IMG/VR virus record: IMGVR_UViG_2657245112_000033
From: a virus
Lineage: Duplodnaviria; Heunggongvirae; Uroviricota; Caudoviricetes
Reading direction: 5' to 3' (one strand)
Length of the DNA stretch: 7,153 bases
The notes beneath the pieces were generated by a model. The model was not told where the DNA came from. It did not search any database and saw only the letters and a list, made by a program, of their open reading frames with translations. This document shows, piece by piece, positions 1 through 7,153 of the stretch (its first letter is position 1; the number at the start of each line of letters is the position of its first letter). A program made the translations under genes and the position numbers.

Positions 1-162
1 TAGCTATAAATACATCTAAATACCTATATCCCTTCCCTTATGGCTAGATTGCGAGAAGTGCTTAACGCGATTTTCAGCGCCCCCCGATCTGGAAAATCCA
101 GAATCCCCAAATATCAGCAAGGAATTTTCTTGCGTAATCAACATCGTTTTTACCTATTAAAT

Positions 163-189
163 CATTACACAGAAAGCCTTTCTGTAATG
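163..189. repeat. Near-palindromic site carrying the ATTACACAG motif (ATTACACAGAAAG-c-CTTTCTGTAAT)
   Basis: 12-bp arms are reverse complements apart from one bulged base. The left arm contains the same ATTACACAG motif that recurs through 505-1900. Confidence 0.6.
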
Positions 190-442
190 TCTCTCACTAA
201 ACTTTCACTAAACACGAGAATGATCGGTTTTATGTCGGATCAGATGCTAGAAACAGCACCACGTCTCACAAGGGCTGTAAGCGATGAAACCAGTGTTTAT
301 GCGGGTGCAGGTCAAAATATAGGCCAAAATCCATTTAACATAATAATCGTAATATGCACTAAGGAACACATAGAACGCCTTGAGTTGATGTATCAGGGGA
401 AAAGTGATGGATTTTTTACGTAGGAGCACGAGAGGGCTTCTG

Positions 443-470
443 TTGACTTTTGTGTGCTATGAAATATAAT
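443..470 (+). promoter_or_regulatory. Sigma70-like promoter, TTGACT-16 bp-TATAAT
   Basis: TTGACT at 443-448 and a perfect TATAAT at 465-470 with a 16-bp spacer. It points rightward into the repeat region, where no ORF of 60 aa or more follows. Confidence 0.5.
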
Positions 471-504
471 TAAAAGTTTTTTGTTTTTATCGTGTGATGT
501 AGTG

Positions 505-951
505 GATTACACAGGGGAATAGATTAAATGGTGTTCTGTTTATACAGGTTTATTTGTTAGATCAACAATTTGGCATTTCTAAACAGATGTTTGAACGTTG
601 CCAAATGTCTTGACAACACAAGAAAAGGGCTTGCTATGCCACGCATTACACGAAATAAGGCTGTAAAAACAAAATAAATTTTAAAATTTGCACAAACAAG
701 AAAACTCATTAAGAAACAAGCAGAACAATTTTTAGCCAACAATTTCTGATGGTGCTCTGTAAGCCGCATTACACAAGGATTTGCGAAAGTGATGTAAAAG
801 TGAAGAAAGTAAGAATTGAACTTTTAAGCTACTTTTTTCATTGAATTTTTAGTATGGAATTACACAGGAATAAGTTAGGGATATTCTATGATTTACACAG
901 GGAATATAGGGGGGATTATGGCACACACATAGAAAGGCATTACACAGAGTG
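505..951 (+). repeat. Dispersed direct copies of the ATTACACAG(G)RAATA motif (6 copies)
   Basis: Copies at 505-522 (gattacacaggggaatag), 644-660, 767-780, 858-874 (aattacacaggaataag), 891-910 (atttacacagggaatatagg) and 938-951. All share the TTACAC core in the same orientation. Confidence 0.75.
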
Positions 952-966
952 CTATGTGACAAATGG

Positions 967-1072
967 ATGTAACGAGAGGTTACATTCAGCTATCTGAAAT
1001 GCTCTTTGTAAGAAAGTTGGTAGTAACGATATGTTACATAGACTAATTATTGAATGTAACGATATTACACAT
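967..1072. promoter_or_regulatory. Three tandem inverted-repeat operator-like sites (ATGTAAC-N5-GTTACAT)
   Basis: 967-985 atgtaac-gagag-gttacat (perfect 7-bp arms); 1021-1040 tagtaac-gatat-gttacat; 1054-1072 atgtaac-gatat-tacacat; plus a half-site at 1086-1095. The arm sequence GTTACAY is the TTACAC-family core. Confidence 0.55.
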
Positions 1073-1097
1073 CGGAAGATGATTGAATGTAACGGTA

Positions 1098-1138
1098 GCT
1101 CACAGTGAGCTAGGGGTAGGTCATAGTGAACTACCCCC
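1098..1138. repeat. 13-bp perfect palindrome GCTCACAGTGAGC plus about 1.5 units of the 22-bp iteron family
   Basis: gctcacagtgagc at 1098-1110 is its own reverse complement. It is followed by taggggta-ggtcatagtgaactac-ccccc, which matches the unit repeated at 1355-1436; ggggtag and ctacccc form a 7-bp inverted repeat. Confidence 0.7.
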
Positions 1139-1146
1139 ACAGAATT

Positions 1147-1198
1147 CTGTTACCCCTATCAAGTCTGATACCCCTATCAAAACTGATACCCGATAAGA
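1147..1198 (+). repeat. Three tandem 18-bp repeats (CTGWTACCCCTATCAA)
   Basis: ctgttacccctatcaag (1147-1163), ctgatacccctatcaa (1165-1180), ctgatacccgataag (1183-1197, degenerate); period 18 bp. Confidence 0.7.
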
Positions 1199-1208
1199 AT
1201 AAATAACA

Positions 1209-1309
1209 CCTAGGAAATGATTTCCGATCTATTTAGGAAGTAACCTAGGAAGTGGTTTCCTACCTACTTAGGAAATGAGTTCCTACCTACCTAGGAAATG
1301 AGTTCCACC
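1209..1309 (+). repeat. Four to five direct copies of a 15-bp motif TAGGAARTGRKTTCC, each with an internal GGAA-N5-TTCC inverted repeat
   Basis: Copies at 1211-1225, 1246-1260, 1269-1283 and 1292-1306 (the last two identical), plus a degenerate copy at 1234-1245; spacing mostly 23 bp. The architecture resembles plasmid centromere or iteron arrays. Confidence 0.7.
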
Positions 1310-1331
1310 AATACTATAATTAAATAATATA

Positions 1332-1354
1332 AATAATATTCTTTATACTATATA
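1332..1354 (+). repeat. 23-bp perfect direct repeat, copy 1 (aataatattctttatactatata), left of the iteron array
   Basis: Identical to 1482-1504. AT-rich and contains a TATACT -10-like hexamer. Confidence 0.85.
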
Positions 1355-1436
1355 GGTCACTGTGACCTAGGGGGTAGGTCATAGTGAGCTAGGGGGTAGG
1401 TCATAGTGAGCTAGGGGGTAGGTCACTGTGAACTAC
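1355..1436 (+). repeat. 22-bp tandem iterons, about 3.7 copies (GGTCAYWGTGASCTAGGGGGTA)
   Basis: Units at 1355-1376, 1377-1398 and 1399-1420 (the last two identical), plus a truncated unit at 1421-1436. The first unit contains the perfect 13-bp palindrome ggtcactgtgacc. AT-rich tracts lie on both sides. Confidence 0.85.
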
Positions 1437-1481
1437 AATAAGACTATTAATAAAACTATATTAGATTATTAATTAGATCAT

Positions 1482-1504
1482 AATAATATTCTTTATACTA
1501 TATA
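1482..1504 (+). repeat. 23-bp perfect direct repeat, copy 2, right of the iteron array and its AT-rich tract
   Basis: Exact match to 1332-1354; the flanking bases differ on both sides, so the repeat is exactly 23 bp. Confidence 0.85.
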
Positions 1505-1509
1505 TATAT

Positions 1510-1930
1510 GATCTTTTGCCTTCCGGCGTTAGCTTCACTCTCTGGCAAGCAGCCTTACTCCGCTACCTTTCGGGCTTCGTGGCTGGCCCGTTCCGCTCAC
1601 ACCGAAAGCAAAGCGTTACTTTCTTCGTGTAACTATCGTGGCGGTAACGCCCACGAAGAAATACTATTGCGCTGTGCGCAGAAGAGTAATCACCTAACCA
1701 ATCATACTGATTGCTTATGTGTAACTCTCTACCTCTTAATTCCACTTCCTACATTTAATAACTCTCGTTATTCTCTGTAGTTGTGTAATTACTCGAAGAG
1801 AGCGGCTAAAGCTCAATTACACTCTGCTTTCCTCGTGTAATTTCACTAAGCCTCAATACAATTTCACTTCCTACATTCTGTAGTCGTGTAATTGTTTTCG
1901 GTGGAAAAGCCAGAGGCGACACCGAAAGAG
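1510..1930. other. GC-rich island with dense hairpin potential; candidate structured RNA or single-strand DNA initiation element
   Basis: Visibly more GC-rich than its AT-rich flanks. Predicted stem-loops: 1621-1660 (outer ttcttcg/cgaagaa around a GC stem capped by a GUAA tetraloop), 1668-1680 (tgcgc-tgt-gcgca), 1749-1780 (ctaca...tgtag enclosing aataac-tctc-gttatt) and a shorter paralogous module at 1862-1893. The 7-mer ctctggc (1540-1546) is complementary to gccagag (1909-1915), and caccgaaag occurs at both ends (1600-1608, 1920-1928). Inverted TTACAC copies lie at 1626-1633, 1717-1725, 1782-1790, 1834-1843 and 1885-1893. Confidence 0.35.
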
Positions 1931-1962
1931 AATTCTGATCTTATTAATCTTATCTATCTTAG

Positions 1963-2001
1963 TTATCTTACTTACTTATCTTACTTACTTTATCTACTTT
2001 A
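1963..2001 (+). repeat. 13-bp tandem repeat (TTATCTTACTTAC, about 3 copies) inside a G-depleted AT-rich tract
   Basis: ttatcttacttac at 1963-1975 and 1976-1988, with a degenerate third copy at 1989-2001. The plus strand from about 1939 to 2020 contains almost no G. This could be a DNA unwinding element. Confidence 0.65.
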
Positions 2002-2515
2002 TTATTAATAATATCTTTATAAGCTCTGTGTAGCTCTCTGACGCAAGAAACAGCATTCAGGAAGGGAATCACCTTAGAAAAGTGTTCTTTGCGTCATAAT
2101 GTGTTTTATGAAGGATTCAGAGGTGTTTCATAACAGAGATGTATAGAGGATACTTTAGGTAATTAAAAATAAGGGGTCTAAATGCTTCTCTAACAACATT
2201 AAGCAGGGTAGGGAATGGAAACGCATTGCCTACATATAATAAACTCACTACAGGGCTTTACAGAGCGTTTTATAAAGTGACTCTCTGTTTTATATCTATC
2301 ATCATCTAACAAATACAAAATAAGCCACTTAAATAAGCCTCTGGCGAGCTAAACAGCCATTAGATAAGGGAATGTATTGCTTTTATCAAAATCTCGTTAG
2401 AACGCGTTTTAGAGCGTTTTAGACAATAAGGAAGAATAGCACTACATAGGAGAGCACGAATTGCTAAGAAAAAATGTAAGTGCATGAAAAAGATCAGATT
2501 TTTTATGAAAAGGTA

Positions 2516-2544
2516 TTGACAAATGTTTCTTTATATGTAATAAT
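2516..2544 (+). promoter_or_regulatory. Sigma70-like promoter with extended -10 (TTGACA-17 bp-TGt-AATAAT), probable promoter of the 2656-4950 operon
   Basis: TTGACA at 2516-2521, TG at 2536-2537, AATAAT at 2539-2544. The leader downstream contains a short hairpin (aagcc-gtca-ggctt, 2603-2616) and a T-run at 2625-2635 before the first ribosome-binding site. Confidence 0.55.
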
Positions 2545-2655
2545 AGGTATTAGAGGGACAGAAAAACATTCTTCTCTAAATAATCAAAATCAATGCACTT
2601 TGAAGCCGTCAGGCTTGCAAGGTGTTTTTTCTTTTAACTGAATAAGGAGTTTTTT

Positions 2656-2844: not shown

Positions 2845-2863
2845 AGAAGAGAAGGAGAAAACT

Positions 2864-3034
2864 ATGAGCGAAACTACAGAAAAGAAAAGACAACCACGCA
2901 CTTGCTTTCATATTCCTGATGAAGTATTTCAGGTGTTATTTAAAGAAGCCAGAAGTAGACGGATCACTGTCACAGATTACATTCTTGATATGTTGAAAAG
3001 AGAGGCTGAAACACTCTCAAATAAAAGCAAGTGA
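2864..3034 (+). CDS. Ribbon-helix-helix-like (CopG/Arc-type) small DNA-binding protein, about 56 aa
   Basis: The track ORF is 2819-3034, but the ATG at 2864 has an AAGGAG site (2852-2857) and lies after the upstream stop (2842-2844), while 2819 has none. The segment RTCFHIPDEVFQVLFKEARSRRITVTDYILDMLKRE fits a strand-helix-helix pattern. Confidence 0.5.
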   Translation: MSETTEKKRQPRTCFHIPDEVFQVLFKEARSRRITVTDYILDMLKREAETLSNKSK

Positions 3035-3087
3035 TTTTTATCACCATAGTAGCGCCATAGAGCGTGATTACATCAAGGAGATTTTTA

Positions 3088-3780
3088 ATGATTAACCAAC
3101 TAACTTTTACAAAACACTATGACACGTTTGATAATGTATCAAAGATTTATTCTGATAAATTCCCTCAAGGAAAAGATTTAGATCTATTACATATTGTGCT
3201 TTATTTTCGATTCCTTAGTTATCAGGAAAACAACCTTAATTGTTATGAAAGTCACGAAACATTAGCTAAGATTTTTAAGTCTTCAGCGTCAACAATTAAA
3301 CGTAAGATAAACGATCTTAAAGAGATGGGATTATTAGAAACATCCCCACATCCTGATCCGTATATTTCATCTTTGATTTACAATGCTCTCCCTCTCACAG
3401 ATGCACATATTACTCCCCCAGGAGAATCATCACTCTCTGATCTTTCTGAGGCAGAAGAAGCACAGGAACAACCTAAAGGCCATAAACAGCCTTCTTTTGA
3501 TGTTCTTGATGATGATTGGGATACGCCTTTACCGTGGGAGACGGAAGAAACACCTGTTTCATCAAGTGAAAAGGTAGCTAATGATAATGAGGAGGATGTG
3601 TTAAAGAATTTTGCCTCTCTTATTATCAAGCAGAAGAATACTAGAACAGGAGGAGCATCATTTATAGAATTTGCAACATCGTTAGCCTATAAGCACAGGT
3701 TAAAGCTACCAAATGGTATTGAGGCATATTTTGCTAAGAAACATCCCAAAGTATACGAAGACTTTGATATTCCATTTTAA
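3088..3780 (+). CDS. Winged-HTH-like DNA-binding protein with acidic C-terminal region ending in an SSB-tail-like DFDIPF; possible replication initiator or organiser
   Basis: The track ORF starts at GTG 3064; the in-frame ATG at 3088 has AAGGAG at 3075-3080 with a 7-nt spacer. The N-terminal part (LHIVLYFRFLSYQENNLNCYESHETLAKIFKSSASTIKRKINDLKEMGLLE) fits a winged-HTH pattern. The C-terminal half is acidic (DDDWDTPLPWETEE) and the last residues are EDFDIPF. Confidence 0.7.
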   Translation: MINQLTFTKHYDTFDNVSKIYSDKFPQGKDLDLLHIVLYFRFLSYQENNLNCYESHETLAKIFKSSASTIKRKINDLKEMGLLETSPHPDPYISSLIYNALPLTDAHITPPGESSLSDLSEAEEAQEQPKGHKQPSFDVLDDDWDTPLPWETEETPVSSSEKVANDNEEDVLKNFASLIIKQKNTRTGGASFIEFATSLAYKHRLKLPNGIEAYFAKKHPKVYEDFDIPF

Positions 3781-3791
3781 TAAGGAGGGTT

Positions 3792-4070
3792 ATGATTCAA
3801 TATTTAGTAAAAAATCAAGTAGACAGAATTCAGTGTAACGACACAGGAAAACGCATCTACGAAACACTTGCTTACCTCTATAAAGGAAAGCCAACACCGC
3901 TAAAATATAGCGATGTGTTACATCGAGCAGGGTGCTCTGAAGATGGTTTAAAATTCTGGCTGAAACAGCTATCAAACTTCGGTGTTATAGAAATTAAAGA
4001 ATTATCTTTCTCTACATTCAATCTCAAAAGACTAGATAAAGAAATAGAATTCATCTATTCCACTCTCTAA
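3792..4070 (+). CDS. Small winged-HTH-like protein (92 aa)
   Basis: ATG at 3792 preceded by AAGGAGGG (3782-3789), 11 nt after the upstream stop. The segment IYETLAYLY...KYSDVLHRAGCSEDGLKFWLKQLSNFGVIEI follows the same helix-turn-wing pattern as the upstream protein. Confidence 0.65.
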   Translation: MIQYLVKNQVDRIQCNDTGKRIYETLAYLYKGKPTPLKYSDVLHRAGCSEDGLKFWLKQLSNFGVIEIKELSFSTFNLKRLDKEIEFIYSTL

Positions 4071-5889: not shown

Positions 5890-6918
5890 ATGATTCTAGG
5901 CAATGATTACGTTGATTTGATCCCTCTGTTCCAGACACACAGCACGCGTAACTTCCTGCTCTCTACTCTTGATTTTACGGATTCTGTAGGGGTTACATCT
6001 CATAAAGTAGCTGTTTCCCAGCTTGTCGAAAGCAACGAATCTCTCTTTAACAAAGAGACAAGCCGTTTTAGTTCTGAACACAATGTTACTAAGCGAGAAC
6101 AAGGTAAAGAATGGCTGATCGAGATCCCTTACTTCCTGCGTGAAGATGTGATCCGTCCTTCTGATGTTCAAGGCAAACGTAAACCTGGCACTGATTTCCA
6201 GGAAACACTCACTGATATTTATGCGGAATATATCGCTAAACACCACGTAGCGTATCAGCGTACAAAAGAGAGCGTATTGGCTGCTTCTTTGTTCTCGGGC
6301 AAAACTTATACACCGAAAACTGATGATGTTCTTATCGAATGGGGCAAGCTGTTTAACGTATCAGCTATGAAAGCCACTGTGAACGCTTCCAGCACTGACA
6401 CCACGAAGATTTTTAAAGAATTTGATCAGATTGCTACTGACATTATCGAGAAAGCACAAAGCCAGGCGTCTGCTGTAGAGCGTATTGTTGTTTTCTGTAA
6501 ACCTGAAGCCTTCTCCGCAATTCGATTCTCTGCTGGTATGGCAAACGCATTCCAGTATGTAAGCCCACTGGAAGAGGGGAACGTTGTGTATCAGCGTCGT
6601 GACCTGCTGCCAGGGGTGACAGCGTTCACTATCCCAGGAACTAACATTGATGTTGTTAAACTGGTAGATCCGCTACACCTTGCACATATGACTTCTGATG
6701 CGGTTGCGATTCCGAAGTTTGCTAAAGGCTCTAATGTATATCAGAACATCTACGGGGCTGCTTCCAGCACTTTTGAACTGATCAATGCCGCTCCTGCTGA
6801 GGTGTATAGCTATAGCTATGAATCTTCTCGTGGTGATGCTGTTAACGTTGTTACAGAGAATAGCCAGATGGTTGTAAACCACGGTGTAGGCTTCTCCGTT
6901 CAAATCACTGTTAAATAA
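5890..6918 (+). CDS. Major capsid protein, lambda gpE family (342 aa)
   Basis: AAGGAA ribosome-binding site before ATG 5890. Length matches gpE (341 aa). Several segments resemble my recollection of lambda gpE: SVLAASLFSGKTYTPKTD vs AVSAVLKGKYTMTGE, ASAVERIVVFCKPEAFSAIRFS vs ASGVVNIIVFDPKGWALFRSF, DLLPGVTAFTIPG vs NFLPDNTMVLG, and C-terminal GFSVQITVK vs EFVSVQLA. Recalled, not aligned. Confidence 0.85.
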   Translation: MILGNDYVDLIPLFQTHSTRNFLLSTLDFTDSVGVTSHKVAVSQLVESNESLFNKETSRFSSEHNVTKREQGKEWLIEIPYFLREDVIRPSDVQGKRKPGTDFQETLTDIYAEYIAKHHVAYQRTKESVLAASLFSGKTYTPKTDDVLIEWGKLFNVSAMKATVNASSTDTTKIFKEFDQIATDIIEKAQSQASAVERIVVFCKPEAFSAIRFSAGMANAFQYVSPLEEGNVVYQRRDLLPGVTAFTIPGTNIDVVKLVDPLHLAHMTSDAVAIPKFAKGSNVYQNIYGAASSTFELINAAPAEVYSYSYESSRGDAVNVVTENSQMVVNHGVGFSVQITVK

Positions 6919-6958
6919 TATTTAACGTGTAATAGAGGCGTGGCGCTGAGAGATCCCC

Positions 6959-7153
6959 TCATAATTTCCCCAAAGCGTAACCATGTGTGAATAAATTTTG
7001 AGCTAGTAGGGTTGCAGCCACGAGTAAGTCTTCCCTTGTTATTGTGTAGCCAGAATGCCGCAAAACTTCCATGCCTAAGCGAACTGTTGAGAGTACGTTT
7101 CGATTTCTGACTGTGTTAGCCTGGAAGTGCTTGTCCCAACCTTGTTTCTGAGC
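6959..7153 (-). CDS. Possible 3' end of a convergent gene running off the window (C-terminal 64 codons, unknown function)
   Basis: The minus-strand frame entering at 7153 is open for 64 codons (...GMEVLRHSGYTITREDLLVAATLLAQNLFTHGYALGKL) and stops at 6959-6961. It is absent from the track because no Met start lies in the window. The composition is protein-like, but a chance open frame is not excluded. Confidence 0.3.
   Translation of the reverse strand, partial: AQKQGWDKHFQANTVRNRNVLSTVRLGMEVLRHSGYTITREDLLVAATLLAQNLFTHGYALGKL

Follow-up and report, generated by a model that had tools for sequence, protein, structure and literature searches.

The gene at positions 3088-3780 of the virus record IMGVR_UViG_2657245112_000033 in the IMG/VR database, here called rep, most probably codes for the protein that binds the origin and starts the replication of a small island in Escherichia coli that parasitises phages. 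The stretch of DNA analysed has 7,153 nucleotides and is referred to as the window. We read the 230-residue product, Rep, as the origin-binding initiator of a satellite-like island of about 12 kb, whose last six residues, DFDIPF, form a docking peptide of the type that ends the single-stranded DNA-binding proteins of bacteria (SSB; this C-terminal tip is abbreviated SSB-Ct). For this reading as a whole we estimate a probability of roughly 0.5. The evidence comprises the conservation of the tip, the replication-type profile matches of the protein, the iterons that change together with its N-terminal module, and a phage nuclease that carries related DNA-binding modules.

The protein and its C-terminal tip

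A protein identical to Rep is annotated in E. coli O26:H11 11368 (RefSeq WP_000609982.1). The gene and the parts of its product are located in the window as follows:

3088-3780, plus strand: rep, gene of the 230-aa initiator-like protein (ATG at 3088, TAA at 3778-3780, stop included)
3076-3081, plus strand: ribosome-binding site AAGGAG, 6 nt 5' of the ATG at 3088, read from the sequence
3088-3420, plus strand: N-terminal winged helix-turn-helix (wHTH) module, residues 1-111, predicted to bind DNA and to provide specificity (HTH_36, AlphaFold2, Foldseek)
3421-3582, plus strand: disordered acidic and proline-rich linker including FDVLDDDWDTPLPWETEE, residues 112-165 (pLDDT, the predicted local distance difference test score, below 50)
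3583-3759, plus strand: small four-helix C-terminal domain, residues 166-224, family without assignment (AlphaFold2 model)
3760-3777, plus strand: C-terminal tip DFDIPF, an SSB-Ct-like peptide, residues 225-230 (sequence, conservation)

E. coli SSB ends ...PPMDFDDDIPF. The end of Rep reads ...KKHPKVYEDFDIPF, a longer stretch of it ...AKKHPKVYEDFDIPF, and the last ten residues are KVYEDFDIPF. F230 is followed by TAA and carries the free carboxylate; it is preceded by P229 and I228 as well as by the acidic residues D227, D225 and E224. The tip thus displays every sequence feature of SSB-Ct, namely a terminal phenylalanine, proline at -1, an aliphatic residue at -2 and acidic residues at -3 to -6. 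A rough composition-based estimate puts the chance that an open reading frame (ORF) closes with D-x-D-I-P-F below 1e-5 per protein.

Of the 120 relatives closest to Rep in the database, 77 end YEDFDIPF, 29 YDDFDIPF and 14 YEDFDLPF. With only 40 relatives returned from 1.84 billion cluster representatives by an exhaustive HMMER search, the family is narrow. Full-length relatives with 24-47% identity terminate in DFEIPF, DFDIPF, FDPIPF, EFELPF, FEDLPF, YDSIPF, SAVPF, FGTPF, DDIGF and EDIKF, and eight genome loci from Enterobacter, Serratia, Buttiauxella, Citrobacter, Erwinia and E. coli show the endings DFDTIPF, FDPIPF, FEISF, EDLPF, YDSIPF, FDALPF, DFDSIPF and QSTIPF. Among 23 non-redundant family members with less than 80% identity, the terminal phenylalanine was found in all 23, proline at -1 in 19 and isoleucine, leucine or valine at -2 in 21, and positions -3, -4 and -6 are predominantly acidic; the pattern persists where the last 60 residues share no more than 18-34% identity with the query. 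When the C-terminal domains alone are aligned, with identity to the query down to 13-36%, the terminal phenylalanine is the only invariant column. Since the tip is kept while the domain diverges, it is selected for itself and not as part of a conserved fold. The alignments indicate that purifying selection is acting on the terminal [DE]-F-[DE]-[IL]-P-F-COOH, and the tip is very probably functional.

A scan of IMG/VR for the exact coding pattern D-F-D-I-P-F-TAA gave 20 matches. About 11 are members of the Rep family, six are SSBs (all three that were scanned match PF00436, the other three were judged by their N-terminal sequence) and one is a 7-residue fragment. One of the SSBs ends ...PPMDFDDDFDIPF. 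Because the identical hexapeptide closes these true SSBs, DFDIPF represents an authentic SSB ending. SSB-Ct (DDDIPF) is the established site at which many proteins of genome maintenance dock, primase and PriA among them (PMC5872125, PMC10164576, PMC5531588). Motif identity and conservation together suggest that the tip of Rep binds such SSB-partner proteins, and we rate the odds that it would act through SSB-Ct-type docking as slightly better than even.

An earlier note on this DNA had raised the question of other non-SSB proteins ending in DIPF in related elements, and non-SSB proteins with such an end do occur in IMG/VR. The last two matches to the exact DFDIPF pattern are an ImmA/Peptidase_M78-like and a DUF5675 protein, and those listed for DDDIPF-TAA include a DnaB/RecA-like ATPase and a superfamily 2 (SF2) helicase (ResIII + Helicase_C) next to canonical and T7-type SSBs. 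Many of the DDDIPF-ending proteins among the matches listed from the IMG/VR loci L037-L156 (e.g. L039, L098, L126, L145, L153) are not canonical SSBs with an oligonucleotide-binding (OB) fold according to a crude hidden Markov model search. Further proteins with this ending, likewise among the matches listed, are a family of at least 12 helical proteins of 73-76 aa, a 122-aa protein ending EPPMDFDDDIPF and a ribbon-helix-helix-like protein of 191 aa. Some of the unclassified ones may be divergent SSBs. On the basis of these endings, SSB-type tips on non-SSB phage proteins appear commoner than the searched literature suggests.

An ordinary SSB was considered for Rep itself and rejected. Neither Pfam (no PF00436), nor a sequence search of the PDB, nor the AlphaFold2 (AF2) model revealed an SSB or OB fold, and as the OB fold defines this class of proteins, Rep is not an SSB. 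The AF2 model, calculated from a 16-sequence alignment with a mean pLDDT of 73, exhibits a wHTH at residues ~20-100 (pLDDT 85-92) with helices 33-47, 56-62 and 67-79 and a beta hairpin at 83-100, followed at 168-225 by a confidently predicted four-helix domain (pLDDT ~90). Beyond the last helix the tip forms a short non-helical extension of lower confidence. Residues 38-83 match Pfam HTH_36 with an E-value of 2.8e-5 and 24.3 bits. The HTH_36 match, the model and the Foldseek comparison agree with the proposal of the earlier note that a winged-HTH N-terminus takes the place of an OB fold, and the same model answers the question of wHTH versus OB fold with a wHTH, a helical domain and no OB fold. 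No PDB chains similar in sequence to the whole protein were found, and neither Pfam nor the PDB sequences contain a relative of the C-terminal domain.

The earlier note had further described an EDFDIPF end after a long acidic stretch. The ending is as described; the acidic residues (SDLSEAEEAQEQ...FDVLDDDWDTPLPWETEETP...NDNEEDV), in contrast, do not adjoin it but make up the central linker ~55 residues upstream of the tip, with the folded domain lying between. In the SSB layout an acidic IPF tip caps a disordered linker; Rep has a tip and a disordered acidic linker, but a folded domain of ~60 aa separates them.

Two further motifs were observed in the protein. The wHTH ends with ALPLTDAHITPP (residues 100-111, nt 3385-3420). 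In most family members no other segment is as well conserved, and D105, H107 and P111 do not vary in alignment A1 of relatives. Linker residues ~136-151 (window 3493-3540) hold a second acidic/aromatic motif, which is degenerate in the query (FDVLDDDWDTPLPW) and reads D[FL]DD[ILV]P[FC]xWD in relatives (e.g. PDLDDIPFACD), an internal look-alike of DFDDDIPF.

Replication-type matches and iterons upstream of rep

Residues ~30-190 of Rep match the PHROG profiles phrog_270 (2.7e-9), phrog_428 and phrog_8102, the O-like phrog_391/678 and the DnaD-like phrog_186. Families of the replication-initiator, O-like, DnaD-like or replisome-organizer kind account for 10 of the 15 PHROG matches. In Foldseek, the model comes out closest to N-domains of RepA_N plasmid initiators (4pql, 4pt7, 5kbj), and the DnaD N-domain 2v79 is also present. 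The DNA upstream of the gene contains the following elements, for which no strand is assigned:

1094-1137: two type-A iterons with the palindromic core TAGGTCACAGTGAGCTA + GGGGG (repeat analysis)
1351-1439: four tandem 22-bp type-A iterons, TAGGTCAC[A/T][G/A]TGAGCTAGGGGG, putative binding sites of Rep
1208-1306: second iteron type, ACCTAGGAAATGAGTTCC (type B), in four copies; at locus L030, with its MIKNIK-type Rep, it is the only type present
1437-1510: AT-rich stretch with a GC content of 27% (tracts at ~1400-1550) and short repeats beside the iterons, candidate DNA-unwinding element

The 22-bp type-A unit occurs six times in the window, and type-A iterons and AT-rich repeats are found 1.65-2.0 kb upstream of rep. 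DnaA boxes were not detected near the iterons; the sole match to TTWTNCACA is located in the IS10 end and corresponds to chance level.

Covariation of the iteron core with the N-terminal module of Rep was investigated by comparison of 17 loci. Five types of N-module, named after their first residues or their locus, were distinguished, each with its own iteron core, and the iteron type tracks the module in 14 loci. The MINQLTF-type Rep is accompanied by type A (TAGGTCAC-type) at -1.65 to -2.0 kb in 7 of 7 loci; with other N-modules type A is absent, except for single matches with up to three mismatches in L028 and L030. Type C, ACAGAATTCTGTTAGACA, was found with the MINEEQ-type (MINEEQFVK...) in 2 of 2 cases and type D, TCAGGCACTATACCGGA, with the MPKKKK-type in 3 of 3, and the MIKNIK-type and the L007-type occur with type B, ACCTAGGAAATGAGTTCC, and type E, TCGGTCAGAGTGACGTA, respectively. 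As none of the five cores was found in the four loci L003, L008, L010 and L011, these are uninformative. Across the islands the iteron arrays lie at similar distances upstream, and several of them are followed by AT-rich repeats of 12-13 nucleotides.

Comparison of the L023 and L030 proteins with the query gave only 18-21% identity over the first 100 residues and 82-83% over the last 100. Since the iteron covaries with the N-module while the C-terminal half stays ~82% identical, Rep can be regarded as modular, with an exchangeable specificity domain matched to the iterons in cis and a constant effector half that bears the tip. The covariation strongly supports, at the level of sequence, the earlier note's suggestion of sequence-specific action at an upstream origin-like region. 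We consider it probable, with good confidence, that Rep is an iteron-binding replication initiator.

A second line of evidence comes from a phage. Phapecoctavirus Mt1B1_P17 encodes a protein of 328 aa (QNJ49226; L012 4042-5028) that consists of two HTH_36 modules and a MUG113/GIY-YIG-related endonuclease region. One module shares 82% identity with the N-module of the MINEEQ-type Rep and the other 85% with that of the MIKNIK-type; the IPF tip is lacking. ICP1 Odn copies the DNA-binding domain of RepA of the PLE satellite and cleaves the PLE origin (PMC8263062). Similar to Odn, QNJ49226 joins the DNA-binding domain of a satellite initiator to a nuclease domain of the GIY-YIG superfamily. This parallel is independent support for Rep being a phage satellite's origin-binding initiator. 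The gene of QNJ49226 is related to window 3047-3095 and 3384-3461, and the motif ALPLTDAHITPP is absent from both the MINEEQ-type module and this nuclease.

The region upstream of rep shows additional features. Window 1094-1440 is an iteron mosaic with six type-A copies, four type-B copies and one type-C-like copy at ~1139-1157; such mixed iterons could be relics of recombination, sites of cross-replication or decoys. An 18-bp repeat, TCTGATACCCCTATCAAA, is present in 2.6 copies at 1146-1191 and resembles a repeat of L003. A 13-bp repeat, CTTATCTTACTTA, occurs 3.9 times at 1949-1999; most E. coli-type islands carry it too (about -1.0 to -1.15 kb), with all three Rep N-module types found there, and GCGTTTTAGA was found twice at 2404-2423. 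Overall, window 1-2650 comprises ~2.6 kb without a convincing ORF, yet it is conserved among islands and holds the iterons and a sequence similar to a phage direct terminal repeat (DTR); structured RNA was not found in it at the Rfam gathering threshold.

The island and its probable link to phi92-like phages

The rep gene lies within the ~12-kb island between tRNA-Thr (thrW) and the pao genes. The island contains small genes of unknown function, a Phage_cap_E major capsid gene and the genes of a tape-measure-like protein of 609 aa, a Dit-like tail protein and a tyrosine integrase. Searches with Pfam, PHROGs and NCBIfam recognised no helicase, primase, polymerase, loader or terminase in it, and a portal, protease or other head or tail gene was not found besides the capsid, tape-measure-like and Dit-like genes. 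To our knowledge, this gene set fits no P4-like satellite, phage-inducible chromosomal island (PICI), capsid-forming PICI (cfPICI) or PICI-like element (PLE). Island-related DNA was detected in 626 of 5,426 complete E. coli genomes, with at least 80% coverage in 297 of the 626. Two neighbouring genes were located:

5890-6918: Phage_cap_E major capsid gene (the tape-measure-like and Dit-like genes are at L001 16822-19399)
2864-3034, plus strand: small gene upstream of rep, 56 aa in RefSeq (longest ORF from 2819), weak Arc-like match to phrog_582 (E 0.004)

The product of the 56-aa gene is possibly a ribbon-helix-helix regulator (Arc/CopG-like) of the rep operon, as the profile match hints. The gene order hyp62-hyp56-rep is conserved in related islands. 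Window 2852-3098 is 67% similar in DNA sequence to phage 'muut'. Downstream, a gene of 92 aa (3792-4070) starts 12 nt past the rep stop with its own GGAGG and is syntenic in related islands. Both the 56-aa and the 92-aa gene could be parts of a replication module. Window 6930-7153 is the end of an IS10/ISVsa5-type element, inserted just past the capsid gene; in O26:H11 11368 the island continues beyond the insertion point with a 67-aa gene, the 609-aa tape-measure-like gene, the Dit-like gene and the integrase.

A short segment connects the island with phi92. Window 43-88 (46 bp) is 93.5% identical, in reverse orientation, to nt 318-363 of phi92, which straddle the annotated end (nt 343) of the left DTR. 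The sequence recurs in ~50 Justusliebigvirus/Phapecoctavirus genomes, and its 28-bp core (58-85) is exactly preserved in six E. coli islands that differ in Rep type. QNJ49226 of Phapecoctavirus Mt1B1_P17, with its Rep-like modules, is the second link between the island and this group of phages. Judged from this similarity, the segment is a candidate for a hijacked packaging or terminal-repeat signal of a helper, and the island looks like a satellite of phi92-like myoviruses (Stephanstirmvirinae). A limited literature search found no prior description of satellites of phi92, Phapecoctavirus or Stephanstirmvirinae. As the island appears tied to phi92-type lytic phages, the proteins recruited by Rep could come from the helper phage rather than from the host. 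In the published annotation of a relative (PMC12210895), a helicase/primase is named as well as a helicase of the UvrD type.

Proposed mechanism, alternatives and known counterparts

We infer DNA binding, initiation activity, docking of the tip and choice of partners from the comparisons and the model described above. In the proposed mechanism, the exchangeable N-terminal wHTH would recognise the 22-bp iterons (1094-1137, 1351-1439) beside the AT-rich unwinding region, and initiators assembled on the array would open the adjacent AT-rich DNA. The constant C-terminal half would act as effector, with a flexible acidic linker, the small helical domain and a free DFDIPF tip. Several initiators per origin would then display [DE]-F-[DE]-[IL]-P-F-COOH in the way SSB partners encounter it on SSB-coated DNA. 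Docking of the tips in the SSB-Ct pockets of replication proteins would nucleate helicase loading and priming, which would serve an origin without a DnaA box on an island that itself lacks a helicase, primase and polymerase. Possible partners would be PriA, PriC, DnaG and the chi subunit of Pol III of the host, or replication proteins of the helper phage that are adapted to host SSB; the latter would be the alternative if lytic infection shuts down host functions.

Several observations weigh against this interpretation. The HTH_36 match is 0.7 bit below the 25-bit cut-off of Pfam, the Foldseek matches are weak (E >= 0.014) and stand amid generic MarR/Fur wHTH proteins, and NCBI names Rep only 'transcriptional regulator'. 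A few relatives deviate at critical positions of the tip and end ...EISF, ...DIGF, ...DIKF or ...YIAF; the ending ...EISF corresponds to the Pro-to-Ser change of ssb-113. The tip of Rep begins only ~5 residues past a folded helical domain and does not cap a long flexible linker as that of SSB does, so its access to partner pockets is an assumption. Finally, a phi92-like genome gave no phmmer match to E. coli SSB (gp32-type or divergent SSBs lie beyond that search), and its only acidic tails ending in phenylalanine belong to the beta subunit of ribonucleotide reductase and to a 136-aa protein without assigned function. With neither an E. coli-type SSB nor an IPF-tailed protein found in the helper, a helper partner is pure conjecture.

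The position of the tip directly after a folded domain and the strongly acidic linker also lead to a different proposal, in which tip and linker fold back on the basic DNA-binding surface of Rep or on its C-terminal domain and thereby tune iteron binding or oligomerisation. Acidic tails of SSB, T7 gp2.5 and T4 gp32 act in autoregulation, and those of SSB compete with DNA for the binding cleft. Electrostatics between tail and polymerase are discussed in PMC12339929. The exchange of N-modules (18-21% identity) under a fixed tip is, however, hard to square with co-adaptation to one DNA-binding surface, and a tail acting by electrostatics would not need an [IL]-P-F-COOH as precise as this one, which equals that of host-type SSB tips. 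We consider autoregulation unlikely as the explanation of the tip; it does not exclude docking, with which it is compatible.

Satellites commonly interfere with their helpers, and the tip of Rep is identical to real SSB tips. Interference with the helper is documented for PLE (PMC8263062). Rep might accordingly be a decoy that titrates SSB-partner or helper proteins and inhibits the DNA metabolism of helper or host, with DNA binding being secondary. The earlier note had mentioned such a decoy, for which our analysis yielded no specific support: a conserved DNA-binding module that swaps specificity and is matched to iterons in cis fits a site-bound factor and not a soluble competitor, and high abundance would be required. 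This makes the decoy quite improbable.

The presence of a capsid gene in an island without a recognisable terminase raises the question of a packaging factor similar to small terminase subunits (TerS), for which lambda gpNu1 and TerS of Staphylococcus aureus pathogenicity islands (SaPI) are the models. With a wHTH, a self-association region and a C-terminal partner-binding tail, the architecture resembles that of TerS proteins. In this scenario the wHTH would bind repeats on satellite DNA and the tail would engage the large terminase of the helper, the likeness to SSB-Ct being coincidental; covariation of repeats and DNA-binding module is compatible with a pac site as well. Rep, however, matches no terminase family in Pfam, PHROGs or NCBIfam, whereas the majority of its PHROG matches are of replication type and RepA_N and DnaD are its neighbours in structure. 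An AT-rich region of the unwinding type flanks the repeats, the separate copy of the helper's terminal-repeat boundary at 43-88 is the likelier packaging signal, and the parallel with the Odn-like nuclease points to an origin. A TerS role is thus less probable still.

The pattern x-F-x-I-x-F loosely resembles the clamp hexapeptide QLxLxL, and two relatives end Q-S-T-I-P-F and Q-S-A-V-P-F. RK2 TrfA recruits the sliding clamp through QLSLF. The assumption that the tip is a beta-clamp-binding or other non-SSB motif, or a C-terminal degron, nevertheless has a slim chance at best, since the defining glutamine is missing from the query tip and from 21 of 23 relatives, where acidic residues are conserved instead, and since authentic SSBs use the exact hexapeptide. 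A plain transcriptional regulator that has no part in replication and ends like SSB by chance, as the NCBI name and the many generic MarR/Fur-type Foldseek neighbours could suggest, is very improbable in view of a tip kept across 24-47% identity, which rules out a fortuitous ending, and of the replication-type PHROG matches, the iteron/AT-rich architecture and the Odn-like phage counterpart.

The preferred reading, an initiator with an SSB-Ct-type docking tip, can be compared with known systems. Similar to SSB-Ct, the end of Rep is acidic-hydrophobic, terminates in I-P-F with a free carboxylate and belongs to a protein with a proline-rich acidic disordered segment. In contrast to SSB, the bearer is a predicted double-stranded DNA (dsDNA)-binding wHTH protein without OB fold, and a folded helical domain instead of a linker precedes the tip. 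The tail of T7 gp4 is treated as equivalent to the tail of the SSB gp2.5 on the polymerase (PMC12339929), which provides a characterised precedent for a non-SSB replication protein that shares the tail of its SSB. As is proposed for Rep, gp4 is a non-SSB replication protein with an SSB-type acidic tail ending in phenylalanine, which engages the same partner surface; in T7, however, the phage encodes both the tail and its partner, and a helicase carries the tail, whereas here a putative satellite initiator carries a host-type SSB tip.

By analogy, RepA of the Vibrio cholerae satellite PLE would be a counterpart as an iteron-binding initiator with a RepA_N-like wHTH and swapped replicon specificity types. 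The PLE RepA/ICP1 Odn pair differs in host clade and helper, and the coliphage chimera QNJ49226 has two DNA-binding modules. We know of no SSB-like tip on PLE RepA. RepA_N initiators (RepA of pSK41 and pTZ2162) and DnaD/lambda-O-like proteins likewise combine an N-terminal wHTH for iterons with a separate C-terminal domain that recruits host replication proteins; the matches of Rep to them are weak, its C-terminal domain is without relative in Pfam or among PDB sequences, and no loader or helicase gene is adjacent. RK2 TrfA, an iteron-binding initiator, captures a component of the host replisome with a short linear motif. The concept is the same as that proposed for Rep, while motif and presumed target differ (SSB-Ct-type tip versus clamp-binding motif). 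A limited literature search revealed no prior report of an origin initiator with an SSB-Ct tip or of the string DFDIPF.

In its most far-reaching form, which we advance tentatively and at somewhat less than even odds, the proposal is that an array of initiators bound to dsDNA impersonates SSB-coated single-stranded DNA and directly captures the machinery of restart or priming (PriA, PriC, DnaG, chi), or the helper replisome, so that the origin would fire independently of DnaA and of a loader. The array would then stem from an undescribed capsid-encoding family of satellites of phi92-like (Stephanstirmvirinae) myoviruses engaged in an Odn-like arms race with phage nucleases that imitate the DNA-binding modules of the initiator, and would be one case of a broader and mostly unnoticed use of SSB-Ct by non-SSB phage proteins.

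If the tip docks in SSB-Ct pockets, a mobile element would have a compact way to fire an origin for which it needs neither a helicase nor a loader nor a primase of its own and apparently no DnaA: bound to duplex DNA, the initiator would present the peptide with which SSB universally recruits. Viral host-mimicry signals may include an under-annotated class of SSB-Ct motifs on proteins other than SSB. The rep gene looks like part of an undescribed satellite-helper system of E. coli, and the candidate packaging signal together with the Odn-like nuclease suggests an E. coli counterpart of the PLE-ICP1 system of Vibrio, which would offer a far more accessible model.

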